The notes below the pieces were generated by a model that ran no database searches, had not been told where the DNA came from, and saw only the letters and a program-made list of their open reading frames with translations. A stretch of 64,000 bases of DNA from an uncultured Acidobacteriota bacterium (lineage in GTDB: Bacteria > Acidobacteriota > Vicinamibacteria > Vicinamibacterales > UBA2999), in NCBI GenBank assembly GCA_963841895.1, contig CAWJEO010000014.1, forward strand, positions 38,303 to 102,302, given 5' to 3'. Of the stretch, positions 1 to 64,000 are shown one piece after another. The first letter of the stretch is position 1. Each line of letters begins with the position of its first letter. Position numbers and translations under genes: made by a program.

Positions 1-103
1 CGCCCCACCACTCAATGCGGCCTTGGGGGTCATGTCCTTGACGTGAACCGCCGGCTTTCGCGGTTTTGCCGGTCTCAACTGTTTCGTCGCCATGGCTCTG
101 CTC
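1..103 (-). CDS. hypothetical protein, partial (runs off window start); N-terminus MATKQLRPAKPRKPAVHVKDM
   Basis: ATG at 101-103 on minus strand, open to window edge; basic N-terminus; no family recognised. Confidence 0.3.
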
Positions 104-332
104 CTCGCTGACTCTGCGGGCGTCGTTGCGGTCGTCATGATGTCGCTCGTCGTGGTGGCGGTTGTTCAGACGCCACGTCGTCACCAATTCCAAGAGCGAT
201 GCCAGCCGGCAGATCCGTCGCAAACCGTTGATATGTAAGGGGGAAACGTGGCGAGTGTGGAACCGGGGCTTCGTTTACGCGGAGCCAGCGGCCTCGAAAT
301 ACCGCCGGTGGACTTGTTTTCAGCTATCGCTC

Positions 333-396
333 GAACGAACGAAGAACTAAGAACGTCAGTTCCGTTCTTAGTTCTTCATTCTTCGTTCTTAGTTCT
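333..396. repeat. palindromic tandem-word element (GAACGAAGAACTAAGAACG / CGTTCTTAGTTCTTCG), terminator-like hairpin at 3' end of peptidase gene
   Basis: inverted repeat read directly; same word family recurs at 58256-58298. Confidence 0.6.
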
Positions 397-2002
397 GCTG
401 CTGCGGCTGCTGTGTCCCGGTCCGCACCGTCGGGTACTTGATGCCGAGCTGATCCAGGTAGGTCTTGAACTTCGTGGGATCGTAGTAGTACTTCCGCATC
501 TGCTCGCGATACTTCGCGAGGATCTCGGTGTTCAGGTGCGTGGCCGGCGGCGTGTCCTTCTTGATGAAGGGGATGTACTTCACGTCCTTGGTCTGGACAT
601 TGGTGAAGTAGTCCCACGCCCCCTTCACGACCTCCGGCTTGGACAGGAGGTCGAGGATCGTCATCGCCTGCACCTTTGCCCCGGCGACGACGCCCTTGTG
701 CGCGATCGGCGTGGCGCTGGCAATGGCGCTCGACCAGTTGTGACCGGGCAGCCCGGGAATGTTCGACGGGAAGCGCAGCGTCACCGTCGGCACGTTCCAA
801 GAGACGTCGCCGATGTCGTCGGAGCCGCCGCCGGTGTTGTTCTCGGGGTTGACCGGCTGTCCGAGCTCGCCGAGCTTGACGGCCAGGCCCTCCTGCCGCG
901 GGTTCCCGAGCTCCTTCTGCAGCGCCTTGGCCAGCGTCTGATCCTCTTCGCTCCAGGTCGGTAGGCCCACCGACTTGATGTTTTCGTACATCGTCTCCGC
1001 AATCACTTTGTTCATGTGCTGCGGGTAGGCGGTGCCGACGATGCGCGACGACCACTTCGTGTTCGTCATCAGCGCCGCGCCCTCTGCCATCTTGTCGCCG
1101 ATCTCCCACAGCTCCTTGATGTGCGGCTGATCGATCTCGCGGAAGTAGAACCAGATGCTGGCATTGCGCGGGACCACGTTCGGCTGGTCGCCGCCGTTGG
1201 TGATGACCGAGTGCGACCGATGCGAGAGGCGCAGATGCTCGCGGCGATAGTTCCACCCGACATTCATCAGCTCGACCGCGTCGAGCGCCGAACGTCCACG
1301 CCACGGCGCGCCGGCACTGTGCGCCGTTTCACCCTCGAAGGTGTACTGCACCGAGACCAGCCCGGTGCCGCCGCCGGCGCCCCATGACACGCCGAGATTG
1401 TTGCCCACGTGCGTGAACAGCACGGCGTCGACGTCCTTGAACACGCCGTCGCGAACGTACCACGCCTTGGTGGCGACGAGCTCCTCGGCGACGCCGGGCC
1501 ACAGCATGATCGTGCCCGGCAGCTTGTCGCGCTCCATGATCCTCTTCACCGCGACGGCGGCGAGGATGTTGAGGGGCATGCCGTTGTTGTGCCCTTCGCC
1601 ATGCCCCGGCGCGCCCTCGACGATCGGGTCGTGATACGCGACGCCGGGCTTCTGCGAGGCCTGCGGGATACCGTCGATGTCCGACCCCAGCGCAATCACC
1701 GGCTTGCCCGATCCCCACGTCGCGACCCACGCGGTTGGAATCCCCGCAACCCCTCGCTGCACCTTGAACCCGAACTTCTCCAGCTGCCCGGTCAGGTAGC
1801 GAGAGGTTTCGACCTCCTGAAATCCCAGCTCACCGAAGCTGAACACGGAGTCGACCATCTCCTGCGCCAGCTTCGCCATCTCGTCAACGCCCTTGACGGC
1901 GTCGGCCTTCTGCGCCGCGAGCTTCGCATCGGGTTGCGCCCAGGCCGCCTCCACCGATACCAGCATCGTCAGCGCCGTCATCACGGCAATGCTCCGAACC
2001 AT
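389..2002 (-). CDS. M20-family metallopeptidase/amidohydrolase (AbgB/hippurate hydrolase-like), secreted
   Basis: 551-aa ORF, M20 peptidase-like sequence (family recognised by overall similarity); signal peptide MVRSIAVMTALTMLVSVEAAWA suggests start at 2002 rather than 2044. Confidence 0.8.
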   Translation of the reverse strand: MVRSIAVMTALTMLVSVEAAWAQPDAKLAAQKADAVKGVDEMAKLAQEMVDSVFSFGELGFQEVETSRYLTGQLEKFGFKVQRGVAGIPTAWVATWGSGKPVIALGSDIDGIPQASQKPGVAYHDPIVEGAPGHGEGHNNGMPLNILAAVAVKRIMERDKLPGTIMLWPGVAEELVATKAWYVRDGVFKDVDAVLFTHVGNNLGVSWGAGGGTGLVSVQYTFEGETAHSAGAPWRGRSALDAVELMNVGWNYRREHLRLSHRSHSVITNGGDQPNVVPRNASIWFYFREIDQPHIKELWEIGDKMAEGAALMTNTKWSSRIVGTAYPQHMNKVIAETMYENIKSVGLPTWSEEDQTLAKALQKELGNPRQEGLAVKLGELGQPVNPENNTGGGSDDIGDVSWNVPTVTLRFPSNIPGLPGHNWSSAIASATPIAHKGVVAGAKVQAMTILDLLSKPEVVKGAWDYFTNVQTKDVKYIPFIKKDTPPATHLNTEILAKYREQMRKYYYDPTKFKTYLDQLGIKYPTVRTGTQQPQQQN

Positions 2003-2082
2003 CAGTGCGTCCTCCCGAAGTGATAAATTGTAAGAGTTCGTCAACGGCGATTCGTCGTCTTTCTTTGTATCCGATTCCGCTG

Positions 2083-3131: not shown

Positions 3132-4739
3132 TCAGCGGGCAGCCGGGCCCATTGCCTTGAGGAATTCATTCCAGGAGACGGGCTGGCCATGCACAGGTGC
3201 GATGGTCGCCACCTCCAGCTTCATCCGCTGCACCTGATTGAAGAAGCTGCGCATCGCTGGCGTCGGCGATGCGGGCGGCGGTTCGTGGGTGTCGAAGAGA
3301 TCGGCCTGGAACGCGATGCGCTCCGCTGGCAGATAGGCCATCAGCATCCCGGCAACGTGCGCGAGCGGCTGCACGTAGTACACGCGCAGGATGCGGCTGT
3401 TGTCGGTGATGACGAAGTTCTCGTTGATCGCCTCGAAGTTGTAGCCCTCCGAGAGCTCGGTCGGCGGCCACATGGCCACGATGTCGGGGGCGACGGTCCG
3501 CGGACGGTAGTTCAGCACGTCGCGATTCAGGAACTCGATCGCTTTCCGGTGCGCCACGATGGTCGACCCGATGTGGAGATAAGTCCGCAGGCCGCCGATG
3601 TGATCGAAGTGCGGGTGCGAGCTGACCAGCCACCGAATCGGCTTGTTGGGCACGAGCTTGACGACTTCCTCGATGACCGCCAGGCTGCGGGCTTCATTCA
3701 ACGGCGCCTCGAACACGGCGACGAAATCGCGGAACTCGATCAGGTAGCTGTTGTGGGTGGCGCCGCCGAGCCGGTAGACGCCGGCGGCCAGCTTGTCGAG
3801 CGGTCACGGCGGTCGGCCACGTCGCGCGCCGCACGTCGTCTGGCACCGGCACGGGATCGTCACAGACGTTGGGCTGCACCTTGGGGAATTTCCCCCCATA
3901 GGCGTTGTGGCCGGTGCTGGCATTGTCGAACTGCCAGTTGTCGTCCCACCCCTGATGCGAATGCCAGACGATCGGCCACTTGACGTTGCCAAACGTCATC
4001 TGCTCGGTCGATTCGTGCTCGATGTTGAAGTCACCCAACGCCGGCTCGCTGACCGTCGTCTTGATGCGCTGGATCTGATTCTGCGCGTTGATCGTCGCCT
4101 CGACGCGGTACTTCCCGAGCATGGTGATCGAGACCACGTGCATCTTCTCGGGCTTGACGACGTTGCCGTCGCGGCCCATTTCGATCTGTTCCCAGCGCCA
4201 GATCGCCTTGGGGTTGGCGCCTGGAAGACGGGCCGCCTTGAGAAAGCCCGGAGGGTTGAGCCAGAGATCCAGCTGATACCGCTCGGCGTCTTCAGTCGGC
4301 ACCGCGACCGGCGGACCGTCGCCGTCGATGTGCCAGGCGTACGGGCCATTGACGATGTGCGTCTGGCGCGGGTGCTTCTGCAGCGGGGTGCCGCCGCGCC
4401 ATCCCAGTCCGTACTTCCACGACGCGGGGGTCAATCCAGGCTTGCGATCGAAGGTCTCTTTACTGGTGCCCGTTTCCCAGTTGATGGTCCGCGTGTAGTT
4501 GGCCATCGCATCCGGGCGCGGCCAGTCGATGTTGACCGCGTACTCGGCGGTCTGGCCAACGGCGCCGTTGTAGCCGGCGCCGGAGAACGTGATGCAGCGC
4601 AGCCCGGCTTCGCCAATCTCACGCGACGCGGCGGCGAGAAGCGGCTGCGGATCGACGTAGCCTGGCGGGAACGACTGTGCACCAGGCTCGCCGCCAGCGA
4701 TTGCCAACGCCGCGAAACACCGCCACAGCTTCTTCATAG
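3132..4739 (-). CDS. secreted protein with N-terminal domain of unknown function fused to C-terminal MBL-fold metallo-hydrolase; frame break near 3800-3830
   Basis: signal peptide MKKLWRCFAALAIAGG at 4739; MBL motif LDKLAAGVYRLGGATHNSYLIEF...SSHPHFDHIGG continues upstream of the 3132-3716 ORF in its frame until a stop at 3804. Confidence 0.6.
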
Positions 4740-5577
4740 GCACCTGTCGCGGCCGGCCTCTTGAGGGCCGGCCGGCTGCCTGATGCGTGCAGTTTTTCCA
4801 ATAGCAACCGCCCGAAGTACGGTCCTTTGCCTTCGTCCTCGTGTTTGAAATACACGAAAACATCCTTGCACCGCGAGTGCCGAGATCCGCGACGGTGTCT
4901 GCCCAGCGCGCGATGTCGTCCTCGGTATAGCCCTCGTCGCGCAGTCTCAGGTAGGCGTAGTCGGCGGTCGACAGAATCGGGGTCGATCGTTTTTCGCTGT
5001 CGGCAATGCACAACGCCAGATTGCGATCGCGGAGCCGGGCGTAGACCTCTTCGTCGAGCCACGACTCATGACGAAACTCGAAGGCGCCGCAGACGCGCGG
5101 CGGCAGGTCGGCCAGAAACCCGTCGAGCGCGGCGAGGTCTTTCTTGAACGTCGGGGCGAGTTGGAAGAGCAGCGCCGCAAGCTTCGGCCCGAGCTCGGCC
5201 GCCGCCTCGCAGAACGCCGCCACAGGTTGCGCGACGTCACGAAGTTTGCGGTCGTGCGTGATGCGTCGGGGGGCCTTGAGCGTGAAGCGAAAGCCGTCGG
5301 GGACTTGCGCAGCCCAGCCGGCGACGAGCTTTGCCGTGGGCATGCGATAGAAGGTGTAGTTGATCTCGACCGTGGAGAAGCGTTCAGCGTAGAAGGGCAA
5401 CATCTTCGCCGCCGGTAAATCTGACGGATAGAAGTTACCCTTCCATTCCGGATAGTTGTAGCCGGACGTCCCGACGTGGATCACGAAAGGCGCGTCAGTT
5501 GCAGTTTCCAGTGAACAGTTCAAAGCAGCCCTCAGTGCCAATTCCAGCAACCGGCCAGTTTGAATGGCACTGGGCAC
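4619..5577 (-). CDS. DUF72 (YecE-like) family protein, frame-disrupted
   Basis: VIHVGTSGYNYPEWKGNFYPSDLP...RFSTVEINYTFY N-terminal signature; C-terminal KDVFVYFKHEDEGKGP found in a second frame (4619-5062). Confidence 0.6.
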
Positions 5578-5598
5578 TGGAAACTGACGAGCCGAGTG

Positions 5599-5928
5599 TT
5601 ACCAGCGCGGTTCGCGACGGCCGCCACCGCCGCCGTACCCACCTCGGCCGCCACCCCCGCCGCCGAAGTCGCCGCCCGACGGCTTCGGTCGCGCTTCGTT
5701 CACGACCAACGCCCGCCCATCCATCTGATACTGGTGGAACTCGCTGATGGCTTTCTGCGCATCGTCGTCCGACACCATCTCGACGAACGCAAAACCCCTC
5801 GCACGGCCAGTTGCCTGGTCGCGCATCACCCGAACGTTGTCGACTGCCCCAGCCCGACTGAAGAGCGACGTCAATTCTTCATCCGTGACTTTATACGGAA
5901 GGTTGCCCACGTACAATCTGCGGCCCAT
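5599..5928 (-). CDS. RRM-type RNA-binding protein with Gly-rich tail
   Basis: RNP2 LYVGNL and RNP1 RGFAFVEM motifs; GGGGRGGYGGGGGR tail; start at MGRRLYVGNL. Confidence 0.8.
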   Translation of the reverse strand: MGRRLYVGNLPYKVTDEELTSLFSRAGAVDNVRVMRDQATGRARGFAFVEMVSDDDAQKAISEFHQYQMDGRALVVNEARPKPSGGDFGGGGGGRGGYGGGGGRREPRW

Positions 5929-6129
5929 CGCTGCGCGACCCTTTTCGCGCGCTGGTCTCTGCCTTACGGAGCCACGACGGCGCGCGAGCGACGTGACACC
6001 GGGATTGCGCTCGCAACTGTCGGCCTTCGGGGACACATATGGGCACCGAAACGCGCTACAAGGCGGGCGTGTGACCCGGGAGTATATAGCAGAAATGTTG
6101 CCAAAACGGTCAGGACGGTCGAGGCGTCA

Positions 6130-7038
6130 ATGGCCGAGCTGAGCTGCGTGCTACATTCGCCGTATGCTCGCGGGCCGACAGTTCAGCCGGCAGTCAGACT
6201 CGTCGTGGCGGCCCTTTGCACAGCTTTTTCCAGCTGCGCCGGCCAGGCGCCGCGCCAGTACGAATTGCGTGGCCAGATCCTCGCGCTTCGCCCGGAAGCC
6301 AACGAAGTCCTCATCAAGCACGGCGACATCCAGAACTTCATGCCGGGCATGACGATGCCGTTCAAGGTCCGGGACGCCAGGCTGCTCGACGGCAAAGCCG
6401 GCGGCGACCTCGTCACCGCGCAGTTGATGGTCGGTGAGAACGAGGCCTGGCTCTCGGCGATCGAGAAGACCGGCTCGGCGCCGCTCGAGACGGTCGCCAC
6501 GATTCCCCCGGCGTCCTTCGTGACGCCGCTCGCACCCGGCGATCCCGCCCCCGACACCGAGCTCGCCAACCAGGACGGCAAGCCGGTCTCGCTCAAGGCG
6601 CTGAGGCCGCGGGCCGTCGCGATCACCTTTATCTATGTCCGCTGCCCGATGCCCGAGTTCTGCCCGCTGATGGATCGGCGCTTCGCCGACGTCCAGCGCC
6701 AGGTCGCGGCCGATGCGTCGCTCGGCGAGAGGGTCCACCTGCTGTCGGTCAGCTTCGATCCCGATCAGGACACGCCGGCCGCGCTGAAAGCGCACGCCGG
6801 CAAGCTCGTCGCCGACCCTGCGCGGTGGACGTTTGCGACGGCACCGCGCGAGACCATCGACCGCTTCGCGGCGGCGTTTGGGGTCAACGTCATCCGCGAG
6901 GCCGACCGTACCATCACCCACAACCTGCGCACGGCCGTCATCGGCCCGGACGGCAAGGTCGTCGCGATCTACAACGGCAGCGACTGGACCGCGGATCAGA
7001 TGGTCGGCGACCTGAAGCGCGCGCTCCAGGCCTCATGA
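6130..7038 (+). CDS. SCO1/SenC-family thioredoxin-fold copper chaperone with N-terminal Met-rich (MPGMTMPF) copper-binding domain; lipoprotein-like signal
   Basis: VRCPMPEFCP Cys motif in thioredoxin fold, ...SVSFDPDQDTP..., Met-rich N-domain; signal LVVAALCTAFSSC. Confidence 0.7.
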   Translation: MAELSCVLHSPYARGPTVQPAVRLVVAALCTAFSSCAGQAPRQYELRGQILALRPEANEVLIKHGDIQNFMPGMTMPFKVRDARLLDGKAGGDLVTAQLMVGENEAWLSAIEKTGSAPLETVATIPPASFVTPLAPGDPAPDTELANQDGKPVSLKALRPRAVAITFIYVRCPMPEFCPLMDRRFADVQRQVAADASLGERVHLLSVSFDPDQDTPAALKAHAGKLVADPARWTFATAPRETIDRFAAAFGVNVIREADRTITHNLRTAVIGPDGKVVAIYNGSDWTADQMVGDLKRALQAS

Positions 7039-8794: not shown

Positions 8795-8866
8795 GGGATC
8801 AGGGATCGGGGATCGGGGATCAGGGCTGAGAACTCAGGAACTTAGGAACCTCGGAACTCAGGAACC
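8795..8866. repeat. two-part tandem-word element: (GGGATCR)x5 followed by (GGAACTYAGGAAC)-type words
   Basis: GGGATCAGGGATCGGGGATCGGGGATCAGGGCTGAGAACTCAGGAACTTAGGAACCTCGGAACTCAGGAACC; between MBL paralog A start and POP 3' end, and overlaps the last codons of POP (..FLSSEVPKFLSSQP). Confidence 0.7.
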
Positions 8867-10940
8867 ACCACCGGCCCGCCCTCAATTCGTGACGCACGAA
8901 AGCCAGCTGCGCCGCGGCCAGCTCCACGCGCTGTGAGAATGGCAACCCGTTGTTGGTGGCGTGTCCCGCTTTCTCGTGGTACCGAAGAATCACCGGCCGC
9001 CCGGATGTGCTCGCGGCCTGCAGCGCGGCGGTGAACTTGCGCGCCGCCAGCGGCGGCACTCGCGTATCGAGATCGCCCGACCAGATCATGACCGCCGGAT
9101 AGCGACTCGGACGGACGTTCTGGTACGGCGAGTACTTGCGGATTGCCGCAAACTGCTCGGGGACCGCCGCATCACCGTACTCGAGCAGCGCCGGCATGTT
9201 GTTGGCGCGCGTGTATTGATTGAAGCGGAGAATGTCGACGTCAGGGAACCCGCACAGCACCGCGCGATAGAGGTCGGGACGCTGCGTGAGGGCGGCGCCG
9301 ACCAGCAGGCCGCCGTTGCTCGTCCCCATGATGGCCAGCGAATCAGGCTGCGTGACCCGCTGCCGGATCAGGGCTTCGGCAGCGGCGATGAAATCGTCGA
9401 AGACGTTCTGCTTGTTGGTGAGCATTCCGCCGCGATGCCACGCTTCCCCGTATTCGTTGCCGCCTCTCAGGACAGCCATCGCGTAGACGCCGCCGCTTTC
9501 CACCCAGGCGGCAGCCATCGCGCTGAAGCGCGGCTTTTGCGACGCGACAAAGCCGCCGTAGCCGAACAGCAGCGTCGGCTGACGCCCGTCGCGCGGCCGG
9601 TCCTTCCGCCCGAACACGTAAATCGGCACACGCGTGCCGTCTTTCGAGGTGCCGCCGATCCGCTCGACCGCATATCGACTCGCATCCCACGTCAGCCACG
9701 GCGCGTCCTGAAGGGTGCGGCTGCCGGTCGCGAGATCGACGCGGTAGGTCGTCTCTGGCGAGGTGAACGACTCGAGCGACAGGATCGCCGCCTGGTCGCC
9801 GTCGCCGCGGATTGACGCGGTCGTGAACTCCGGCACGTCGATCTCGCCCGTCAGGCTGCCGGTGCGATCGAAGGTGAGGATGACGTTGCGCGTGTCGCGA
9901 AGGTAAGTCCCGTAGATCCGATCGCCGATCACGGTGAAGTCTTCGAGGACGTCGGCGCGCTCCGCGAGGACCGTACGCCATCTCGTGCGATCCGTCGGCG
10001 CCGCGAGGTCAATCGCCACGACGCGCCCCATCGGCGCGTCGTGATTGGTCCGCATCCACACTTCGTTCTTCACGAACCGCGGATAGAAATGCGCCGGCAC
10101 GTCAGTGACGACGGGCTGCGGGCGCCCGGCGCCGTCCTGGACGAAGACCTCGGATCGCGCCCAGCCGTGCTGCACCGTGAACAGGAACTGCTTCTGATCG
10201 TCGGTCGCGGCCATCGAGACAAACGCCGTCGGCGCGTAGCCGTCGCCGAAGATCACGTGGTCCTTCACCAGGGGCGCGCCCCAGTCGTGCGAGCGTACTC
10301 GCGCCCCGGTCTCCCGCGATCGCCGGACGTAATAGAAGCCTTTCCCGTCCACCCGAAGCGTCACGCTGTCGTAGAGCGCCGACGGGAACCGCTCCACATC
10401 CTTCATCGACTTCAGATCGCGGACGACGATCTCGCGTTCGTCCTGGCCGCCGTCGCGGATGCCGTAGATCAGGCGATCGCCCGGCGGCGTGACCGCGATG
10501 ACGTCCAGGCTCGAGGTCAACCCCGGACTGAGCGGCCGCGGATCGATCACCAGTTGGTACCGGCCTTCCGGATCGATGCGCTCGCCGGGCGTTGCCGGAA
10601 CGGGGCGCCGATAGATGGCGGCCTGCTCGTCGCCGCGCCGGCGGTGCGTGAAGTACTCGTAGCCGCCACCGCGGCGGCCCGGTCCGACGTCGGGACGATC
10701 CATCAGCCGTCGCAGCGTGGCCTCGAGCGCCGGCCGCTCCGGACTGCGGCTCAGCATCCGCTCGGCGTAGCCGTTCTGCGCCTCGATCCAGCGGCGCACG
10801 TCAGGCGACGACTGTTCCTCGAGCCAGCGATAGGGATCGACGAACGTCACGCCGTGAATCACGTCGGTCACCGGTCGGACGTCGGTCCGGGGCGGGGCGT
10901 CCGCGCGCGACAGAGTGAAACCGCGGCAAGCGGCGCCGCG
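8820..10940 (-). CDS. prolyl oligopeptidase family (S9A) serine peptidase, secreted; 1-nt frame break between signal peptide and mature domain
   Basis: POP N-terminal beta-propeller start VIHGVTFVDPYRWLEE and C-terminal catalytic-domain conservation; signal peptide [18 protein letters not shown] is in the +1 frame at 10940. Confidence 0.8.
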   Translation of the reverse strand, partial: RGAACRGFTLSRADAPPRTDVRPVTDVIHGVTFVDPYRWLEEQSSPDVRRWIEAQNGYAERMLSRSPERPALEATLRRLMDRPDVGPGRRGGGYEYFTHRRRGDEQAAIYRRPVPATPGERIDPEGRYQLVIDPRPLSPGLTSSLDVIAVTPPGDRLIYGIRDGGQDEREIVVRDLKSMKDVERFPSALYDSVTLRVDGKGFYYVRRSRETGARVRSHDWGAPLVKDHVIFGDGYAPTAFVSMAATDDQKQFLFTVQHGWARSEVFVQDGAGRPQPVVTDVPAHFYPRFVKNEVWMRTNHDAPMGRVVAIDLAAPTDRTRWRTVLAERADVLEDFTVIGDRIYGTYLRDTRNVILTFDRTGSLTGEIDVPEFTTASIRGDGDQAAILSLESFTSPETTYRVDLATGSRTLQDAPWLTWDASRYAVERIGGTSKDGTRVPIYVFGRKDRPRDGRQPTLLFGYGGFVASQKPRFSAMAAAWVESGGVYAMAVLRGGNEYGEAWHRGGMLTNKQNVFDDFIAAAEALIRQRVTQPDSLAIMGTSNGGLLVGAALTQRPDLYRAVLCGFPDVDILRFNQYTRANNMPALLEYGDAAVPEQFAAIRKYSPYQNVRPSRYPAVMIWSGDLDTRVPPLAARKFTAALQAASTSGRPVILRYHEKAGHATNNGLPFSQRVELAAAQLAFVRHELRAGRWWFLSSEVPKFLSSQP

Positions 10941-10962
10941 AGGAGGGCGATCGCACGACGGC

Positions 10963-20659: not shown

Positions 20660-20663
20660 TGCT

Positions 20664-42236: not shown

Positions 42237-44395
<2,159 letters not shown>

Positions 44396-46565: not shown

Positions 46566-46599
46566 TGTGCAGGCTGCTGGCTGCAGGGCCTGGCGCGGT

Positions 46600-51553: not shown

Positions 51554-51575
51554 AGTGCCTTTCAAAGGATTCGTT

Positions 51576-53465: not shown

Positions 53466-54268
53466 TCAGGCGCCGCGGAAGACGGGTTTCCGCTTCTCGA
53501 GATTGGCGGCGATGCCTTCGCGCGCGTCGTCGCTCTCGAACAGCCGCTGCTGCAGCTCGCGCTCGAGTGCCAGGCCTTCCGAAAAGCCCATTTCCAGTCC
53601 TGACTGCACGGCCCGCTTGATGTGGCCGACGGCCTTGCTGGCGCGGTGCGGCGGCGTGAACTGCGCGGCGTAGTCGAGCACGGCGTCGCGGAACGACTTG
53701 CCCCTTCAGCTCGTCCTCGCCCCACACGTGGGTCACCAGGCCGAGTCCCTTCGCGTCTTCGAAAGACAGCAGCGCGCCGAGCGTCATCAGCTCGATCGCC
53801 TTGGCCTTGCCGACGATCCGGGCCAGCCGCTGGGTGCCGCCGGTGCCGGGCAGCACGCCCAGAGCGACCTCGGGGAGGCCGATCTTGCCGCCGCCCTGTC
53901 GCGCGATCCGGAGATCCGCGGCCATCGCCACCTCGAGCCCGCCGCCGACGGTGTGCCCGTTGAGGGCCGGCGATCACGAGCTTCGGCGTCTGCTCGAGAC
54001 GGTTCATCGTCTCGTTGGCGTGCAGGCAGAAGTAGTACTTGAACGACGGATCGGCGTCCTTGAGCATGCCGATGTTGGCGCCGGCGCAGAAGAACTTCTC
54101 GCCCGCTCCGGTGATGACGATGACGTGCACGGCTGCGTCCATCCGCGCCTCGAGCACGGCACGGTCGATCTCCTGCATCATCTCGTAGGAGTAGGTATTG
54201 GCCGGCGGATCGTTCAGCTCGATGAGGGCAATGCCGTTGCTGGCGGTGTAGGTGATGCGTGTAGGCAT
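53466..54268 (-). CDS. enoyl-CoA hydratase/isomerase (crotonase) family protein; at least two frame breaks
   Basis: IVITGAGEKFFCAGANI oxyanion-hole region; GGGLEVAMAADLRIA; C-terminal ..LEKRKPVFRGA. Confidence 0.7.
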
Positions 54269-54403
54269 ATCGCGATTCTTGGAGTGCGCGGATTCGTGAT
54301 CTGCGAACGCGACGACGCGCATCGTGCACGTCACAACGAGCGGAACGCTCTGCGACGAATCGGCGCAATCCGAGATCTGCGTATCTGCGGTATCTCTGCG
54401 TAC

Positions 54404-55828
54404 TCACGCGTCCGTCCGCACGTACTCGAAGTCGATCGGCAACCGATTGATCCCACGCGGCGGCGGCGCGATGTAGTTGGCGAACTGGCCCGGCTTGTAG
54501 ACCGGGATCGACTGGATGCTGCGCAGGTAGTCCTTGTCCGCCGTCGTCGGCAGCCATTCGCTCTTCCGGCGCTCCCATTCGTCCGCGCTCATTGGCTGTC
54601 CCGCCGGATCGAAGTGGCGGCCGGCGAACACGCCGATCTGGCGATTGAACTTGCGCGACGGCAGGTAGATCCGATCGGTCATGCCGTTCGCTTCGAGCAC
54701 GCGCTTGTTCCAGCGATCGACGCCGGCCTGGCAGTCGCCGACATACCAGTCGCGCAGCACCTCGTTGAGGGCGTTGCGCATCGGGATCTCCTGACGATCC
54801 GGCGCGCCCTGCTCGGTCATGAGGTCGAGCAGATACACGCTGTCCTCGAGCACGTGGTCGTCGTCGTACTTGTCTTCCTCGGCGCGGCCCTTGAGACCGT
54901 TGGAGAAGTAGTTGGCGGCGTTGCTCGACACTTCGCTGCCGTGCAGGTCGAGGCTCTGGCTGAACCAGAAGTTGACGAACTTCTGGATGAGCGGGATGTC
55001 GATACCGCCGACCTTGCGGACGTCCTCGGAGAAGCCGGCTTCCTTCATCAACTGGCAGGTGCGCTCGAGGATGCGGGCGATGCCGCTCTCGCCGACGAAC
55101 ATGTGGTGCGCCTCTTCGGTCAGCATGAAGCGGGTCGTCCGCGACAGCGGATCGAGCGAGCTCTCCGACAACGAGAGGAGCTGCGACTTGCCGTCGCGAT
55201 CGGTGAACATCGTGAAGGCGAAGAAGTCGAGCCAGGTGTCGATCGGCTCGTTGAACGCCTCGAGCATGCGCGGCGAATCGGTGCCGCTGCGGCGCTCGAG
55301 CAGCGCCTCCGCTTCTTCGCGGCCATCACGCCCGAAGTACGAGTGCAGCAGGTAGACCATCGCCCAGAGGTGGCGGCCTTCCTCGACGTTGACCTGGAAG
55401 AGGTTGCGCAGGTCGTACAGGCTCGGGCAATGCGCGCCGAGCATGCGCTGCTGCTCGACGCTCGCGGGTTCGGTGTCGCCCTGGAGGACGATCAGCCGGC
55501 GAAGGGGATTGCGGAATTCGCCGGGCACTTCCTGCCACACCGGCTGGCCCTTGAAGTCGCCAAAGCCGATGCGTCGATCGGCGGTCGGCTCGGCCAGGAA
55601 AATGCCCCAGCGATAGTCGGGCAGCTTGACGTAGTCGAAGTGCGCCCAGCCCGCCGAATCGACGCTCACCGCCGTCCGCAGGTAAACCTGATGCTGATCC
55701 TGGAACCCCTGCGGTCCCATGTCGCGCCACCAGTCGAGATAGGCCGGCTGCCAGTGCTCGAGCGCGCGCAGAAGGCGCTTGTTCCCCGAGAGGCCGACGT
55801 TGTTGGGAATGCGTTCGTTGAGCTGCAT
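54404..55828 (-). CDS. boxB: benzoyl-CoA 2,3-epoxidase (benzoyl-CoA oxygenase) component B, di-iron
   Basis: 474-aa intact ORF with BoxB-characteristic N-terminus MQLNERIPNNVGLSGNKRLLRALEHWQPAYLDWW and di-iron EExH contexts. Confidence 0.85.
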   Translation of the reverse strand: MQLNERIPNNVGLSGNKRLLRALEHWQPAYLDWWRDMGPQGFQDQHQVYLRTAVSVDSAGWAHFDYVKLPDYRWGIFLAEPTADRRIGFGDFKGQPVWQEVPGEFRNPLRRLIVLQGDTEPASVEQQRMLGAHCPSLYDLRNLFQVNVEEGRHLWAMVYLLHSYFGRDGREEAEALLERRSGTDSPRMLEAFNEPIDTWLDFFAFTMFTDRDGKSQLLSLSESSLDPLSRTTRFMLTEEAHHMFVGESGIARILERTCQLMKEAGFSEDVRKVGGIDIPLIQKFVNFWFSQSLDLHGSEVSSNAANYFSNGLKGRAEEDKYDDDHVLEDSVYLLDLMTEQGAPDRQEIPMRNALNEVLRDWYVGDCQAGVDRWNKRVLEANGMTDRIYLPSRKFNRQIGVFAGRHFDPAGQPMSADEWERRKSEWLPTTADKDYLRSIQSIPVYKPGQFANYIAPPPRGINRLPIDFEYVRTDA

Positions 55829-55843
55829 GAGGCTGAATCCTTG

Positions 55844-55940
55844 TCAGTTACAAGTTGCAAGTTCACAAGTTCAAAGTTAGAGTTCGGCGGACAGCGTTCG
55901 ACCGCTCCAACTTTGAACTTGGAACTTGGAACTTGTAACT
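55844..55940. repeat. roughly 36-bp-stem hairpin built from CAAGTTC words (GTCAGTTACAAGTTGCAAGTTCACAAGTTCAAAGTT ... AACTTTGAACTTGGAACTTGGAACTTGTAACTGTC) between boxC stop and boxB RBS
   Basis: read directly; boxB SD AAGGA lies just downstream. Confidence 0.65.
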
Positions 55941-55942
55941 GT

Positions 55943-57609
55943 CTAGGTTCTTTTCCAGTCGAACGTCGGCCTTCCCTCACGGCCGTAGACCGTGAGCGCG
56001 CCGCGCTCGCCGACGGCGTTGGGACGCTGGAAGATCCAGTTCTGCCACGCGGTGAGGCGGCCGAAGATCTTCGTCTCCATCGTCTCGGGGCCGGCGAAGC
56101 GGAGGTTGGCTTCCATTCCGGTCAACGCGTCGGGCGAGAATGCCGTGCGCTCTTCGATGGCGAGGCGGACTTCGTCCTCCCAGTCGATGTCGTCCGGCGC
56201 GAACGACACGAGGCCGGCGGCGAGCGCTTCCTCCGCGTCGAACGGCCCGTCGTGCGCGAGGACCTCGTCGACGTGACCTGGCTCTCCGAGGAAGCGCGTC
56301 TGCAGCCGGGTGAGGCCGGTGCTCATCGGGTACGACCCGCCGTTCATCACCGACAACTGGATCGTATTCGCTTCGTCCGGGTGCGCGAGCATGTACGAGC
56401 GATCCGCGGCGAGCGCGAGCTCGAACAGCGTCCCGGCGAAGGCGTTGCCGGGCTCGATCAGCGCGAAGAGGCTGCGGGCGGTGAGGTCGAGCCGCTTCAG
56501 CGTCCGCCGGATGTGGCCGATGATCTCGCGCACCAGCCAGTGATCGCGATGCGCGTCGAGCGTTCGATCGACATCGAGGACGGCCTGCGGATCGCCGGTT
56601 GCGCGCAGCAGAATCGTGCCGATCTCGGGCTCGTTCAGCCGCAACCGGAGGAGCGCATCGTCGAACTCGCGAAACGCCCGCAGGGCCCACGACTGATCGC
56701 CGGCCTGCTGGAACGCGTCCGGCGAGTCGGGCTGCGGACTGTCGGGGGCGCTGATCGTGAGCTCGCAGACCCGCTTCGCGCGATCGATCGAGCCGCGCAC
56801 GTATCGATACTGAATGGTGTCGCCGTCAATGGCCGGATTGAGCGGTGCCAGCGAAATCCCGGGACCGGTTGCGGGCCGATCGGATTCGGCCGCCATCGCA
56901 GTGCGCGCGTTCGGTCACGGCGCTCCTGAAACTGACGGCTCGGCACGACTTTGTCGACAAGCCGCCATTCGACGGCTCGCTTGCCCCGCACGCCTTCAGT
57001 CAGCGTGCTGAACGCATCGGCGAGATCGCGGCGCACCTTGCGCTTGTCGACGACGCGCGTGAGACCGCCGGTTCCCGGCAGCACGCCGAGGAGCGGCGTT
57101 TCCGGCAGTGCCACCGAGGCATTGCCATCGTCCACCAGGTAGATCTCATCGCAGGCGAGCGCGAGCTCGTAGCCACCGCCGGCGCAGATGCCGTTGAGCG
57201 CGGCCAGGAACTTGACGCCGCTCGATCGGCTCATGTCTTCCATCCCGATCCGCGTCTCGTTGGTGAACTTGCAGAAGTTCACCTTGAAGCCGTGGCTGGA
57301 CGAGCCGAGCATGAAGATGTTGGCGCCGGCGCAGAAGATGCGCGGCTTCAAGCTGGTGACGACGACGGCGTGGACCTCGGGATGCTCGAAGCGCAGCCGC
57401 TGCAGCGCGTCGGCAAGCTCGATGTCGACGCCGAGATCGTACGAGTTGAGCTTCAGCTTGTAGTCGGCGGGACGGAGGCCGGCATCCTCCTTGACGTCCA
57501 TGGCCAGCGTCGCCACCGCGCCGTCCACCGAGAGTTTCCAGTGCTTGTAGCGATCCGGCGAGGTTTCGAAGGACAACGAGGGCGCGGGCGTCTGGAGAGT
57601 GTGCTCCAC
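55943..57609 (-). CDS. boxC: benzoyl-CoA-dihydrodiol lyase (2,3-epoxybenzoyl-CoA dihydrolase); one frame break near 56890-56920
   Basis: N-terminal crotonase-like domain (VTSLKPRIFCAGANIFML; LNGICAGGGYELALACD) in 56635-57609 frame; C-terminal BoxC domain in 55943-56896 frame. Confidence 0.8.
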
Positions 57610-57626
57610 GCCGCGAGTCTACACCA

Positions 57627-57645
57627 GTTTAAACGAGCGTTCAAA
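57627..57645. promoter_or_regulatory. candidate TetR operator: inverted repeat TTTAAACG-AG-CGTTCAAA in the boxC/tetR divergent intergenic region
   Basis: 8-bp arms with one mismatch; TATAAA box at 57653-57658. Confidence 0.45.
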
Positions 57646-57666
57646 TCCGTGGTATAAACGCACGAG

Positions 57667-58278
57667 GTGGCAAAACCCGCAAACGGCGCCGATCGCCGCA
57701 TCGAGATTCTCAAGAGCGCTGCCGCCGCGTTCCGCCGCCGCGGCTATCACGGCGCGAGCGTCGACGAGATCGCCTCGGCGCTCGAGATGACGAAGGGGAA
57801 TCTCTATTACTACTTCGAGAACAAGGAAGAGATCCTCTACGCCTGCCACGATTACTCGCTCGACGTGCTGCTGGCGCTGATGGCGGAAGTGCAATCCGAA
57901 CCCTCGACGCCGCCGGACGAGAAGCTGCGCAAGCTGATTCTTGCGTTCATCCACACGATGCTGGACGAACTGCAGGGCACCGCGCTGACGCTCGACCTGC
58001 AGGCGCTGTCGCCGGCGCTCCTCAAGCGGATCATCGCCAAGCGCGATCGCTTCGACCGCGGCCTGCGCGAGATCATCCAGCAGGGCATCGATCAACAGCT
58101 GTTCCGCGCCGGCGACCCCAAGATGATTGGCTTTGCGATGATGGGCGCGGTCAACTGGATCACGAAGTGGTTCGATCCCGCTGGACCGATGTCGTCAGAA
58201 CAGATTGGCCAGCGGTTCGCCGATTACCTCGTCGGAGGACTGTTGAAGAGTTCTGCAGAACTAAGAACGAAGAACTAA
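57667..58278 (+). CDS. TetR/AcrR-family transcriptional regulator
   Basis: HTH GYHGASVDEIASALEMTKGNLYYYFENKEEIL; 203 aa intact; divergent from boxC. Confidence 0.85.
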   Translation: MAKPANGADRRIEILKSAAAAFRRRGYHGASVDEIASALEMTKGNLYYYFENKEEILYACHDYSLDVLLALMAEVQSEPSTPPDEKLRKLILAFIHTMLDELQGTALTLDLQALSPALLKRIIAKRDRFDRGLREIIQQGIDQQLFRAGDPKMIGFAMMGAVNWITKWFDPAGPMSSEQIGQRFADYLVGGLLKSSAELRTKN

Positions 58279-58298
58279 GGTCTTAGTTCTTGTTCGTC
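58256..58298. terminator. hairpin GAACTAAGAACGAAGAACTAAG-G-TCTTAGTTCTTGTTCG (same word family as 333-396), bidirectional between tetR and MBL hydrolase
   Basis: read directly; encodes the last codons of TetR (..AELRTKN-stop). Confidence 0.6.
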
Positions 58299-58305
58299 GC
58301 GATCG

Positions 58306-58997
58306 TCACTCCGCCGTCTCCCCGGGTTTCAGCTCCAGCACCTGAATGCCACTACCGTCGAGCGCGGACTTCAGCGCCTCGGGGGTGCCCGTCAGCAGCG
58401 GGAACGTGCCCCAGTGCATCGGCACGACCTGCTTGACGCCGAGCCAGCGCGCGGCCATCGCCGCCGTGTCTGGGCCCATCGTGAAACGATCGCCGATCGG
58501 CAGGAACGCGATGTCGGGCTTGTAGATCTCGCCCAGCAGCTTCATGTCGCCGAAGAGCGACGTGTCGCCCGCGAAGTACAGCGTCTGGCCGTTCTCGAGG
58601 CGGACGATGAAGCCCGCCGGCTCGCCCAGATAGACGATGCCGTTGTCGTCGAAGCTGCTGCTGTGGCAGGCGTCGGTCATCGTGATGCGCAGCCCCTTGG
58701 CGTCGATCGTCCCGCCTTTGTTCATCGGCTCGACATGCTGCACGCCCTTGGTGCCGAGCCACGACGTCACTTCCCAGATGCCGACGACGGTGGCATTGGT
58801 GGCCTTGGCCATCGCCGCGGCGTCGGTGATGTGGTCGCTGTGACCGTGCGAGACGAGGATCAGATCGGCGCGCGTCGGTCGTTTCGCCTCGGGAAAACTC
58901 GGATTTCCCGTGTACCACGGATCGAACAGGATCACCTTCCCGCCGGGGGTCACGAGGAAAAGGAAGAGTGGCCGAGCCAGGTAATCGAGAGAGACAT
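58306..58997 (-). CDS. MBL-fold metal-dependent hydrolase (UPF0173-like); one frame break near 58960
   Basis: LVSHGHSDHI motif; FDPWYTGNP; C-terminal GDRFTMGP; N-terminal MSLSITWLGHSSF in other frame. Confidence 0.7.
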
Positions 58998-59026
58998 TGG
59001 GGCAGTATAGCGACGGCGGACGGAGG

Positions 59027-59083
59027 AATCTGGTGATCGTGGCTGAGTCTGGTGATCTGGTGATCTGGTGATCGAGTGACGTC
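59027..59083. repeat. GGTGATCTG-family tandem-word array (AATCTGGTGATCGTGGCTGAGTCTGGTGATCTGGTGATCTGGTGATCGAG)
   Basis: read directly; left boundary of a 530-nt apparently non-coding region. Confidence 0.6.
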
Positions 59084-59610
59084 GTTGCCGTTCGTCTTCG
59101 CGGTGCTGTCGCCTGCGCGGCGGTGCGGTACGCACGCGGCAAAGATGCGCGGAGCTGCTGGGCTTCGTCGTAAAGACGCAGCCGACTGCGGCGACTGTCA
59201 CAGGCCGGCGCCGCGGATGTGCTCGAACCAGAAGACGGTCTCGTCTGCTTCCTCGTTGACCACGCCGATCTTGGCGAGCGAACTCTTCGAGTGAGCGGCC
59301 TCGCGCCGAGGCCCGATAGTTTGCCGCCGCCGCACTCGAAGATCGCTGTAGTTGATCGGCCGCCTTGCGCCGCCTGGTTTCCGCCGCAGGACACGCACAA
59401 TCGGAAGGCCTCGCTCGCAAAGCGCGCGGTGCGCTGCTCCAATTCGGGTCGATTCACAACCGGCATGGAGTGCACGTCTCGGATCCAGCGCAAAACCATC
59501 CGAGTTTCGACCGGAGCCGCCGCCAGGTACGCAATTGTCACGACTTGTCGCCGCAACGCGGTCCGCAGTTTTTGCGGCCTAGAGGGGAACATCCCGGCGA
59601 TCAGACTCGC

Positions 59611-59676
59611 GAGATCACCAGCATCGCCAGAACCAACATCACCACATCGCAACATCTCCACATCGCGACATCTCAG
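59611..59676. repeat. inverted partner array (GAGATCACCAGCATCGCCAGAACCAACATCACCACATCGCAACATCTCCACATCGCGACATC)
   Basis: read directly; right boundary of the non-coding region, just upstream of lipA. Confidence 0.55.
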
Positions 59677-59693
59677 GGTAGACTGCAAAGAGA

Positions 59694-60597
59694 GTGATCG
59701 AATCGCCTTTGACGTTCGTGCGGCCCCGGGAGCCGAAGCCCGAGTGGCTGAAGGTCCGCGCGCCGGGATCCGAGAACTATCTCCGGCTCCGCGGCATCAT
59801 GCGCGGGCTGAAGCTGAACACGGTCTGCGAGGACGCGCACTGCCCCAACATCGGCGAGTGCTGGCATCACGGGACCGCGACGTTCATGATCCTCGGCGAC
59901 ATCTGCACGCGCGCCTGCTCCTACTGCGCAGTCGCGCACGGACGGCCGACCGAGCTCGATCTCGACGAGCCGCGGCGCGTCGCCGAAGCGGTCAAGGCCA
60001 TGGGCCTGAAGTACGCCGTCGTCACATCGGTCGATCGCGACGATCAGGCCGACGGCGGCGCCGGAATCTTCGCCCAGACGATTCACGAGATTCGCGCGGT
60101 CATGCCGGACACGCGCGTCGAGGTGCTGATCCCCGATTTCAAGGGCGAGGCCGGGCCGCTGCAGACGGTCCTCGACGCGCGGCCGGATGTGCTCAACCAC
60201 AACACCGAGACGGTGCCGCGGCTGTATCGGATGGCGCGATCGGGCGGCAAGTACGCGCGGACGCTCGAACTGCTCGATCGGGCCAGGACCTACGCGCCGG
60301 CGATTCCGACCAAGACCGGCCTGATGGTCGGCCTCGGCGAGGAGCACGACGAGCTCGTGCAGGTGTTCCGCGATCTCCGCGGCGTTGGCGTCTCGATCCT
60401 GACCATCGGCCAGTACCTGCGCCCGTCGCCGGATCACGCGCCGATGACCCGCTATTACCACCCCGACGAGTTCGCGCGCGCTCAAGCGCGCGGCGATGGA
60501 CCTGGGCTTCGTGCACGTCGAGGCCGGCCCGCTCGTCCGCAGCTCCTACCACGCGCACGAACAGGCTGACGCCTACGACCTCGCACACGGCCGGTGA
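59694..60597 (+). CDS. lipA: lipoyl synthase; one frame break near 60480
   Basis: CEDAHCPNIGEC and CTRACSYCAV cluster motifs; C-terminal DLGFVHVEAGPLVRSSYHA in +1 frame, stop 60595-60597. Confidence 0.85.
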
Positions 60598-60648
60598 GAC
60601 GCGGTAGCGCCTCATCAGCCGCGGAGCGACCAATCGTCCTGGACACCC

Positions 60649-61975
<1,327 letters not shown>

Positions 61976-61992
<17 letters not shown>

Positions 61993-62437
61993 ACGTTCGT
62001 GCTATCGACGGCGGATTCAGTATCGCGACACCGATGCGTCGGGCATCGCGCACTTCACCATCTTCTTCCTGCTGTGCCGAGGAAGCCGAGCACGCGATGT
62101 GGCGCGAGCACGGTCTGAGCGTCGAGCCGCGCGAGACCGACATCGGCTGGCCGCGGCGTGTCGGCGTCGTTCGAGTTCCTGCGCCCGCTCAGGTTCGAAG
62201 ACGAAGTCGAGGTGCAGTTGCGCCTGATCGGGCGAACGTCCAAAACCCTGCCGCTATCAGGCCGTCATCGTCCACGACGGCAAAGTCGCGGCCGCAGGGA
62301 CGATGACAACGATCTGCGTCGAGAAGCGTCCGGGCCGGCCGCTCCGCGCGATTGCCATCCCGGCAGAAATCGCCGGACCGCTTCACAGTCGTCGCGCCGA
62401 TCGAGGTTCCCGGCCTCAGAGGGTCTCGATCCCCTGA
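61976..62437 (+). CDS. 4HBT/YbgC-type hotdog acyl-CoA thioesterase; heavily frame-disrupted
   Basis: RIQYRDTDASGIAHFTIFF ... SFEFLRPLRFEDEVEVQLRLIGRT ... AVIVHDGKVAAAGTMTTICV in three frames. Confidence 0.5.
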
Positions 62438-62466
62438 CCCCCGATCCCTGATCCCTGACCCCTACG
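62427..62466. repeat. GATCCC-word element (GATCCCCTGACCCCCGATCCCTGATCCCTGACCCC) between convergent genes
   Basis: read directly. Confidence 0.55.
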
Positions 62467-63778
62467 TGTAACGCAGGTTCGTGTGCGCGGGGAGGAAGAA
62501 GCGCGGGAGCAGCGAGTCGACCCGCAGCAGGCCCTCGCGGCTGAGCGACACCAGCTCGCGCGTCGCGGTCAGCAGGCGCTCGGCGGTCAGGCTGTCGAGC
62601 GGCGCGCGGAAGCGATCGAGCACGTCGACGCCGTACTTCTGCTCGAAATACTGCGGCCGGATCGCCCCGAGCTTCAACTGCAGGACGAACTCGCGGATCA
62701 GCCGCTCCTCGCTGGTCGGCTTGAGTCCCCGCGCCAGCGGCAGCACGCCCCGTGAAATGCTCTCGAGGTAGGGCCCGAACTGATCGAGGTTCTGCATGTG
62801 CACGCCGCTCATATGGCCGAACGACGCGACGCCGAGGCCGACCATGTCGGCGCCCTGCCACAGCCGATCGCGATAGACGAACTTCGTGCTCGGGTTCTTG
62901 ACGACAGCATACGCAGAGGCAACGGTGTAGCCGGCGCGCTCGAACGCCGCGAACGCCTCGTCGACCCAGCGGCGCTTGGTCGTCCAGTTCGCGACGTCGC
63001 CGCCCGAGACGGCTTCGCCCGATCGGAGCGACTTGCTGATCGTCGTGTTGAACGGCAGCTCCATCTGGTAGATGGTCACGCTGTCGGGCGCGAGCGCAAT
63101 CGTCTTCTCGACGGCCATCCGCCAGTTGTCGTCGGTCTCGCCCAGCATGCCGGCGATCAGGTCGATGTTGATCTGCGGGAAATTCAGCGACTCGGCAAAC
63201 GCGTAGGCGCGGCCGATTTCGGCCGAGCGATGGGCGCGGCCGTTGATCTCGAGAATGCGATCGTCGAAGTGCTCGACGCCAAGACTGAGGCGGGTGACGC
63301 CGATCTCACGGATCGCCGTCAGCTTCGCTTCGGTGAGCGTACCGGGCTCGCATTCGAACGTAATCTCCTCGGCATGCCGCCACGGGCTGACCGCATCCAT
63401 GCGCGACACGAGGCTTTGCAGCTGCCGCGTCGAGAGAAACGATGGCGTGCCGCCGCCGAAGTAGACGAAGTTGAGCGGCCGCCCGGCAACGGCCCGCTGC
63501 TCGTTGTACAGCTCCCACTCGCGTGCGAGCGTGTCGAGATACCCCTGCACCTCGGCCGCGTTCTTGTCGGTATAGACGCGGAAATAACAGAAGTGACACC
63601 GCTTCCGGCAGAACGGAATGTGCAGGTACAGGCCGAGCGGCACATCGGTCGGCGGCGCCGCCAATGCCGGCCGGACGTCGCGGTCCACGGCTTCCTGCGT
63701 CCACGTCGAGAACGGCGGATAGTTGGCGATGAAGTAGCTGCCGACCTCGGTGCGATCGTCGGCGGCACGAACTGGCAT
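62462..63778 (-). CDS. HemN/HemW-family radical-SAM protein (oxygen-independent coproporphyrinogen-III oxidase-like)
   Basis: CRKRCHFCYF radical-SAM CxxxCxxC; GGGTPS; 438 aa intact. Confidence 0.85.
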   Translation of the reverse strand: MPVRAADDRTEVGSYFIANYPPFSTWTQEAVDRDVRPALAAPPTDVPLGLYLHIPFCRKRCHFCYFRVYTDKNAAEVQGYLDTLAREWELYNEQRAVAGRPLNFVYFGGGTPSFLSTRQLQSLVSRMDAVSPWRHAEEITFECEPGTLTEAKLTAIREIGVTRLSLGVEHFDDRILEINGRAHRSAEIGRAYAFAESLNFPQINIDLIAGMLGETDDNWRMAVEKTIALAPDSVTIYQMELPFNTTISKSLRSGEAVSGGDVANWTTKRRWVDEAFAAFERAGYTVASAYAVVKNPSTKFVYRDRLWQGADMVGLGVASFGHMSGVHMQNLDQFGPYLESISRGVLPLARGLKPTSEERLIREFVLQLKLGAIRPQYFEQKYGVDVLDRFRAPLDSLTAERLLTATRELVSLSREGLLRVDSLLPRFFLPAHTNLRYT

Positions 63779-63804
63779 GCGGTCTGGTCTCCGGCGCTCC
63801 GTGC

Positions 63805-64000
63805 TATCGCGCGTCGGTGCGCGTGGGGTCAGCGAGCAGCCGCTTGATCAGCGGCTCGAGCGCCTCTCTTGTCATCTTACCCGGGTTGTAGAGCCGCACG
63901 CGGCCGGCGCGATCGAGCAGGACGAGGGTCGGCGTCGTGCTCACGCCGTAGCGGACGTGATTGGCCTCGCTGATCGGGATCGGCTGGCCGGCGAACTCCG
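63805..64000 (-). CDS. thioredoxin-fold (redoxin/TlpA-like) protein, C-terminal part only (runs off window end)
   Basis: ..EFAGQPIPISEANHVRYGVSTTPTLVLLDRAGRVRLYNPGKMTREALEPLIKRLL. Confidence 0.4.

Follow-up and report, generated by a model that had tools for sequence, protein, structure and literature searches.

In the 64,000-nucleotide (nt) stretch of contig CAWJEO010000014.1 (assembly GCA_963841895.1) of an uncultured Acidobacteriota bacterium, called here the window, the reading frames of a large part of the genes are broken by small insertions and deletions (indels). It is assumed, with a probability of about 0.93, that these disruptions are consensus errors in the deposited long-read assembly, mostly spurious single-nucleotide insertions with few deletions; this reading is built on the comparison of sequences. 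An insertion-rich assembly and not a pseudogene-rich organism is strongly supported, and the disruptions are not considered a biological feature. An earlier inspection of the letters alone, referred to below as the original prediction, had described dense frame disruptions and had favoured an assembly error over pseudogenes. The disruptions are borne out by codon-usage Viterbi segmentation, by frameshift-aware alignments and by nucleotide alignments, at a density higher than claimed. The preference for an error is supported by intact relatives, an insertion-dominated spectrum, a low ratio of nonsynonymous to synonymous substitution rates (dN/dS), the near absence of nonsense codons (one was found) and a signature that recurs in metagenome-assembled genomes (MAGs) from Nanopore reads.

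Extent and spectrum of the frame disruptions

The GC content of the window is 67%, and at this composition plain tblastn with orthologous proteins is misleading, as its high-scoring segment pairs continue through wrong frames at 30-50% identity. For this reason a frameshift-aware dynamic-programming aligner of protein to DNA was written. Frame changes were also located by a codon-usage Viterbi segmentation trained on ten clean open reading frames (ORFs), and window-specific indels were isolated by multiple alignment of each gene with 3-29 relatives. Seven intact proteins of the window have exact copies in NCBI and ENA, all on one 367,566-bp contig. The best homologues of BoxB (54404-55828, minus strand), up to 94% identical, belong to soil Vicinamibacterales/Acidobacteriota MAGs, and a genome scan with this protein yielded 80 loci in synteny with 43.6-64 kb of the window (nucleotide identity 70-82%), including many Nanopore MAGs of Microflora Danica (MFD) and many short-read MAGs. 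Two closer relatives are L166, a short-read (Illumina) ENA scaffold 92.8% identical to window 19566-26997, and L167, the long-read 'contig_8197' of ENA assembly ERZ25039504 (629 kb), 93-95% identical to window 13673-34207. A metagenome scan with the prolyl oligopeptidase (POP) protein found no syntenic relatives for window 1-13 kb, where the frame changes were deduced from codon statistics and Pfam.

Over the whole window the Viterbi segmentation gave 108 frame changes on the same strand. A coding-like pattern of GC at third codon positions is seen in only about 35 stop-to-stop ORFs, between which large gaps remain. The segmentation leaves genes uninterrupted at 390-2065, 8893-10917, 20924-22510, 24233-25462, 54405-55835, 60665-61921 and 62463-63807, and in the stretches 12.9-15.9, 25.7-27.7, 37.3-38.6, 39.3-40.7 and 45.4-52.5 kb the best frame switches on the same strand every 50-300 nt. 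When full-length intact orthologues from short-read MAGs were aligned in the frameshift-aware way, 114 frameshifts were required in 33-61 kb and more elsewhere, and in nucleotide alignments 28,985 nt could be evaluated and gave 130 frame-disrupting events, i.e. 4.5 per kb. As a noise control the same pipeline was applied to 15 short-read MAG loci, which returned 0-0.65 frameshifts per kb, mostly at ORF ends; the signal of the window is about 10 times the noise of the method. The total is estimated at about 180-200 frame-disrupting indels in about 37 of about 53 genes. The original prediction spoke of more than 25 genes with one to eight indels each; disruption of many genes stands, the count of genes was too low, and the upper bound is instead 17 frameshifts, reached in a TPR protein at 14280-15929. 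All the break points that it named coincide with switches in the Viterbi path (3799/3800, 10917-10970, 11378/9, 12154/5 and 19487-19550). In the part of the window that has no close relatives, Pfam domains run continuously over the junctions of the frame-restored proteins; five junctions each are crossed by Beta-lactamase and AA_permease and three by G_glu_transpept, and adh_short and Pkinase behave likewise. The genes taken earlier to be intact are indeed clean: mntH, without indels against L166 and L167, and also boxB, tetR, ferredoxin and the halogenase-like and HemN-like genes.

The window-specific events, judged against the 3-29 relatives, comprise 79 insertions of 1 nt, 6 insertions of 2 nt and 10 deletions of 1 nt (95 in all), together with a handful of indels of multiple-of-three or larger size, so that insertions outnumber deletions by about 8:1. 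Within 48877-50427 all six window-specific events are 1-nt insertions that are absent from all ten relatives. The inserted bases (34 G, 21 C, 15 A and 9 T) are close to the genome composition and 66% of them differ from both neighbours, the expectation for a random base being 62%, in agreement with the earlier statement that the breaks are not at homopolymers. The run that includes the inserted base has a length of 1 in 52 cases, 2 in 17, 3 in 9 and 4 in 1, which matches the background; a concentration in homopolymers (runs of 4-6 nt or longer) was not found among the 79 insertions, 10 of which lie in runs of 3-4. Insertions fall on the three codon phases without preference (31/22/26), and no flanking motif was found at 78 sites, with at most 0.13 bits per position. 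An explanation by methylation motifs or slippery sites was rejected, since no motif is present at the sites.

The events are distributed in patches. Counted in 500-nt bins they are overdispersed (variance/mean 2.0, p=2e-5), neighbouring bins are autocorrelated (rho 0.30), and clean and dirty stretches are several kb long and ignore gene borders. In the gene at 35443-38586 the first 56% of the length contain only one of 12 single-nucleotide insertions (binomial P about 0.001, calculated by hand). Density changes within a gene would not be predicted by gene-wise selection, and patches on the scale of a read would fit local differences in depth or read quality. GC content was tried as the driver of this patchiness and rejected; its correlation with event density is weak (Spearman 0.36), and the stretch at 12-14 kb is a counter-example.

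Relation to sequencing technology

More than one frameshift per kb was recorded in 5 of 17 long-contig MAG loci (mostly MFD Nanopore) against none of the 15 short-read loci. In the phylogeny, affected MAGs are intermingled with clean ones, and the occurrence of the disruptions follows assembly type, not phylogeny. Among MFD Nanopore loci, L050 carries 58 one-nt insertions and 3 deletions, L012 carries 23 and 12, and L062, from a 'complete' chromosome, 16 and 1; L001 is also an MFD Nanopore locus but is clean, with 1 one-nt insertion, and the Illumina locus L049 has 0. In the affected MFD loci the insertions are again mostly outside homopolymers and patchy. The contig of the window is deposited in NCBI and ENA, as are these MAGs.

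The MFD long-read catalogue is Nanopore-only and was assembled by Flye and polished once with Medaka; its authors checked for a low coding density and tied this to low GC, low coverage and long homopolymers, and they describe high microdiversity in soils (PMC12313526). In earlier Nanopore work, consensus errors were likewise described as homopolymer indels (PMC9262707), and soil assemblies from Oxford Nanopore reads are reported to contain more frameshift errors than HiFi assemblies (PMC13087279). Nanopore consensus indels that truncate proteins are the subject of IDEEL-type analyses (Sereika et al. 2022, PMC9262707; 2025, PMC12313526), and the window resembles these cases as a long-read MAG in which gene calls are frameshifted and the annotation is fragmented; complex soil samples and low coverage aggravate the problem, which recurs in MAGs from the same project and clade. 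Its known mode, however, is that of long homopolymers, mostly in low-GC genomes, whereas in the GC-rich window any base can be inserted, singly, at positions outside repeats and in kb patches. The insertions of the window may also be likened to uncorrected single-molecule noise of the type known from low-depth PacBio continuous long reads or an unpolished consensus, which is random in context, with insertions exceeding deletions and a composition that tracks the genome. In contrast to such noise, the nearest look-alikes of the window are Nanopore R10.4.1 Flye/Medaka MAGs.

There is about an even chance that all this reflects an undescribed error mode of Nanopore-only soil assemblies of the Flye/Medaka type, in which random single bases outside homopolymers would be added in kb patches, at densities reaching at least 10 per kb, in high-GC Acidobacteriota. 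If true, such a mode has entered public catalogues uncaught by the checks of coding density and homopolymers. The signature is unlike what the catalogue authors screened for, and for this reason it is worth flagging to MAG producers.

Some points weigh against an assembly error. The published Nanopore mode is one of homopolymer indels, which the random non-homopolymer insertions of the window do not fit. The errors are deduced from comparison and were not seen in read pile-ups, the nearest short-read reference (L166, 93% identical) is another strain, and the sequencing platform of the window is itself an inference. Finally, an extra C at 20578, near the 3' end of the gamma-glutamyltranspeptidase gene (ggt), is present in both the window and L167 (at about 13.3 kb) and absent from the Illumina scaffold L166; it may be a real lineage-specific variant or a systematic error.

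Five of the loci with the same patchy frameshift artefact (L050, L012, L062, L055 and L064; 1.2-4.2 per kb) belong to species-representative genomes of GTDB r232. The 'complete' chromosome of L062 has 5.35 Mb and the accession OY970174.1.

Weighing of the alternatives

For the consensus errors the following origin is proposed. A soil population of Vicinamibacterales would have been assembled from long reads, and single-nucleotide insertions would have been left in the consensus. Local read depth or quality would have varied, possibly with a mixture of strains, and as a result some stretches (1-10 kb, mntH and 54-64 kb) would have been polished cleanly and others not.

The mixture of strains could also be taken as the cause proper: the consensus of co-assembled divergent strains would add a base at or beside polymorphic sites, and conserved genes would stay clean. 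Clean stretches do coincide with the highly conserved genes boxB and mntH, and the soil microdiversity described by the MFD authors speaks in the same direction. Insertions lie within 3 nt of a mismatch between the window and L167 in 34% vs 24% (p=0.017), and those of L167 itself lie near a mismatch in 41% vs 23% (p=0.003). Nevertheless, two thirds of the insertions have no mismatch within 3 nt and third codon positions, where polymorphism concentrates, show no excess; moreover, the trade-off between gap and mismatch in an alignment can alone yield a small enrichment, and low local depth accounts for the patches equally well. Strain mixture as the cause is regarded as doubtful. A special form of it, 'allele duplication', in which an adjacent single-nucleotide polymorphism, mostly at a third codon position, would supply its other allele as the inserted base, was rejected as unsupported because the codon phase is uniform and the excess of neighbouring mismatches is only weak.

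Genuine widespread pseudogenisation, i.e. a lineage in reductive evolution whose genes decay by real frameshifts, is very improbable. It would be in keeping with patchy damage in which untouched genes stand beside neighbours with 10-17 lesions, and pseudogene-rich reductive genomes (Mycobacterium leprae, recent obligate symbionts) likewise contain many multiply frameshifted genes next to intact ones. Bacterial pseudogenes, however, show a deletion bias and a broad range of indel sizes, whereas in the window insertions prevail and nearly all events measure 1 nt (79 insertions vs 10 deletions). In contrast to genomes of the Mycobacterium leprae type, the window is also almost free of nonsense codons. 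The sole clean one in the aligned genes, which can be cited in favour of decay, is a TAG at 36497-36499 in the gene of the 1050-aa PD40-repeat protein, set against 130 or more indels; at this place six relatives carry CAG, GAG, TCG, AGC or AAT, and either a substitution error or a genuine variant may account for the TAG. The remaining apparent stops fall between two adjacent insertions or in ORF overhangs.

Relaxed constraint, which decay would bring, is not visible in genes with 4-11 lesions, the dN/dS of which is 0.09-0.19. In the restored frames the values against L166 are 0.09 for a thiamine pyrophosphate (TPP)-dependent enzyme with 4 insertions, 0.12 for the 3' part of ggt, 0.15 for BtpA, 0.17 for g104, 0.18 for IndA and 0.19 for the amidinotransferase (ADI) gene with 9 insertions, and the untouched Nramp gene has 0.07. 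Restored proteins are 91-100% identical in amino acids to their orthologues despite up to 17 frameshifts, and even the gene with 17 still gives 91% to an intact orthologue. Polarisation with L167 assigns 54 synonymous and 32 nonsynonymous substitutions and 1 stop in these genes to the window's own branch, vs about 26 indels. The ratio of indels to substitutions is about 0.3, and together with the dominance of synonymous changes this appears, from what is generally known of bacterial mutation spectra, unlike neutral decay, although ADI and g104 show a higher nonsynonymous share on this branch. The underlying genes were shown in this way to be ordinary, intact and under purifying selection.

As far as the compared sequences go, the lesions were also shown not to be inherited, the extra bases being absent from close relatives. 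Over 19566-26997 the window differs from L166 by 25 one-nt insertions and 9 one-nt deletions, and all eight genes of L166 are intact. In a three-way alignment of this region unique insertions of 1-2 nt number 20 in the window, 5 in L167 and 1 in L166 (intergenic), and unique deletions 8 in the window and 0 in L167. Although the window and L167 are 96.4% identical there, only one extra base is cleanly shared, that at 20578. The broken genes of L167 differ from those of the window: its TPP enzyme is in three pieces and its ADI and permease genes are truncated, while ggt and the TPR gene are intact. A Logan short-read contig (SRR29483051, 2,289 nt), recognised by a 98%-identical Nramp, encodes beside it at least 287 aa without interruption, at a place where the window switches frame; this neighbour protein was not recovered in a later protein search. 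Against decay stand also the changes of lesion density within genes and the fact that MAGs of other species from one sequencing project carry the same signature, which short-read MAGs never do.

A real mass mutagenesis by +1 insertions has a still smaller probability. It is hardly conceivable that programmed ribosomal frameshifting, transcriptional slippage or another kind of recoding restores the frames in vivo, for which nothing speaks beyond the good proteins encoded by the restored frames, since there are up to 17 sites per gene, no slippery or other motif occurs at the 78 sites, their positions are conserved in none of the 3-29 orthologues per gene, and close relatives encode the same proteins in a single frame.

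Consequences and individual genes

If the disruptions are errors of the consensus, about 70% of the genes of the window would be called as fragments, false fusions or 'pseudogenes', and analyses of completeness, pangenomes, pseudogenes and dN/dS would be corrupted. Fragmented annotation was foreseen by the original prediction and has already happened, with false ORFs from this contig in a public protein collection: a false 519-aa fusion of BtpA and IndA (P0148) and a 135-aa fragment of the TPP enzyme (P0303, 23689-24096) are deposited there. Public MAGs, some of the GTDB representatives of the clade and protein databases would thus hold such artefacts. The biology itself is ordinary: this piece of a Vicinamibacterales genome comprises kinases, regulators and hydrolases besides a conserved box cluster, but its gene calls are not to be trusted.

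In the first part of the window (coordinates are followed by the strand) a secreted metallo-beta-lactamase (MBL)-fold protein at 3132-4840 (-) probably has one frame change near 3800, deduced from the Viterbi switch at 3799/3800; in the restored protein the Lactamase_B domain begins 13 aa past the junction. In the S9 prolyl oligopeptidase (8820-11050, -) the body is intact, with matches to S9_N and S9 of Pfam, and the signal peptide is out of frame, with a break near 10930-10950. The separation of signal peptide and mature enzyme, claimed earlier, was seen again in a three-frame translation against L083. The short-chain dehydrogenase at 10971-11753 (-), also given earlier as split over frames, has one change near 11378, and its adh_short match (aa 6-186) crosses the junction at aa 124 of the restored protein. 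An MBL-fold hydrolase (11917-12805, -) has one change near 12154, with Lactamase_B at aa 45-225 crossing the junction at aa 216. At least five frame changes are found in a gene of the serine beta-lactamase/esterase family (12921-14224, -), the Beta-lactamase match of which (aa 22-360, profile positions 5-312 of 329) extends over all five junctions; one further frameshift is at 13939 against L167. The gene of the TPR-repeat protein (14280-15929, -) is the densest, with its 17 frameshifts and no in-frame stop, and its full-length orthologue in L167 is an intact protein of 546 aa. The Ser/Thr (Hanks) kinase with a PD40 beta-propeller (16013-18684, -) has 3 frameshifts, at 17108, 17606 and 18435, and a Ser/Thr kinase gene with TPR (42237-44395, +) has 11-13; breaks in both Hanks kinases had been reported.

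The ggt gene (19275-20700, +) carries 5-6 single-base insertions, at 19497, 19513, 19550, 19854, 20578 and 20679, located against L166 and L167, and the frame breaks announced for it are confirmed also by the domain match over the junctions. The ggt call of L167 continues further and shares 180 nt with the IndA-like gene. Against both relatives three 1-nt deletions are found within 17 nt of ggt (20040-20056, net -3), which produce a short out-of-frame stretch, after which the frame is regained. In the IndA-like and BtpA region (20750-22443, -) insertions at 20912, 20943 and 21685 create the false single ORF of 519 aa (20884-22443); in L166 and L167 these are separate genes of 273/257 aa and 307 aa, and BtpA is 100% identical in amino acids to that of L167 after one frameshift correction. 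The TPP-dependent enzyme (22500-24096, -) has its 4 insertions at 23111, 23202, 23628 and 23793, and the intact L166 protein of 532 aa shares 96% identity with it. Nramp/MntH (24172-25470, +) is a clean control, with 0 gaps against L166 and L167 and 98-99% amino acid identity. Downstream of mntH, at 25480-25502, there is a 23-nt insertion relative to L166, GCCCGGCGAGTTTTGGGGATAGG, in a G-rich and poorly aligned intergenic block. The amidinotransferase gene (ADI/DDAH; 25592-26432, -) has 9-11 indels in 840 nt, and the amino-acid permease gene (26492-27723, -) about five frame changes, with an AA_permease_2 match (aa 1-354) that crosses five junctions.

Further along, the TPR region downstream of a second kinase (29316-29982, +) has 10 frameshifts in 667 nt and corresponds to a 221-aa L167 protein at 91% identity, and a redoxin/thioredoxin-fold protein (32892-33518, -) has 4 frameshifts against a 209-aa L167 protein at 94% identity. 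The 1050-aa PD40-repeat protein (35443-38586, +) is affected by 12-14 indels, of which eleven fall within its final 1.4 kb. A TPR/aspartyl-protease-domain protein (39250-40797, -) has 11-12 frameshifts and an IclR-type regulator (41346-42368, -) 8-9. Four consecutive genes at 45402-50421 (+), for a 399-aa protein, a CarboxypepD_reg protein, a HisKA sensor kinase and a sigma-54 activator, contain about 33 single-base insertions in total, and the gene of a DUF5777 protein (51417-52456, +) has 13-15 indels in 1 kb.

The box-adjacent enoyl-CoA hydratase (crotonase; 53472-54256, -) has 2-4 frameshifts (53699, 53970), BoxC (55943-57615, -) one change near 56900, and lipoyl synthase LipA (59682-60591, +) one insertion at 60476, near its 3' end. 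The frame changes foreseen in these three genes were thus found, by tblastn and Viterbi segmentation and by alignment of orthologues; for BoxC the 559-aa protein of L056 matches in two frames in tblastn and the Viterbi switch is at 56911/2. BoxB (474 aa) is an intact clean control of full length against its homologues, and the halogenase-like flavoprotein (60649-61992, +) and the HemN-like radical-SAM gene (62462-63778, -) are intact.

At the opposite end of the window, a 551-aa ORF at 389-2044 (-) matches the M20 dimerisation domain only, the catalytic Peptidase_M20 being unmatched at the default threshold.

The order HemN-like gene, halogenase-like flavoprotein, lipA, MBL-fold, tetR, boxC, boxB and crotonase is kept in dozens of acidobacterial MAGs. 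From this conserved gene order (window 53472-63778; L001-L066) it follows that the aerobic benzoyl-CoA (box) cluster is widespread in Vicinamibacterales. In L162 an IS481-family transposase (5457-6635) occupies, beside the box cluster, the place that lipA and the halogenase-like gene take in the window and in most relatives. Seven loci syntenic with the box locus (L004, L034, L040, L049, L025, L026 and L074), with BoxB identities of 84-87% (64% in L074), are titled 'uncultured Bifidobacteriaceae', 'cyanobacterium/Cyanobacteriota' or 'Enterobacteriaceae', and these taxonomic labels are evidently wrong.

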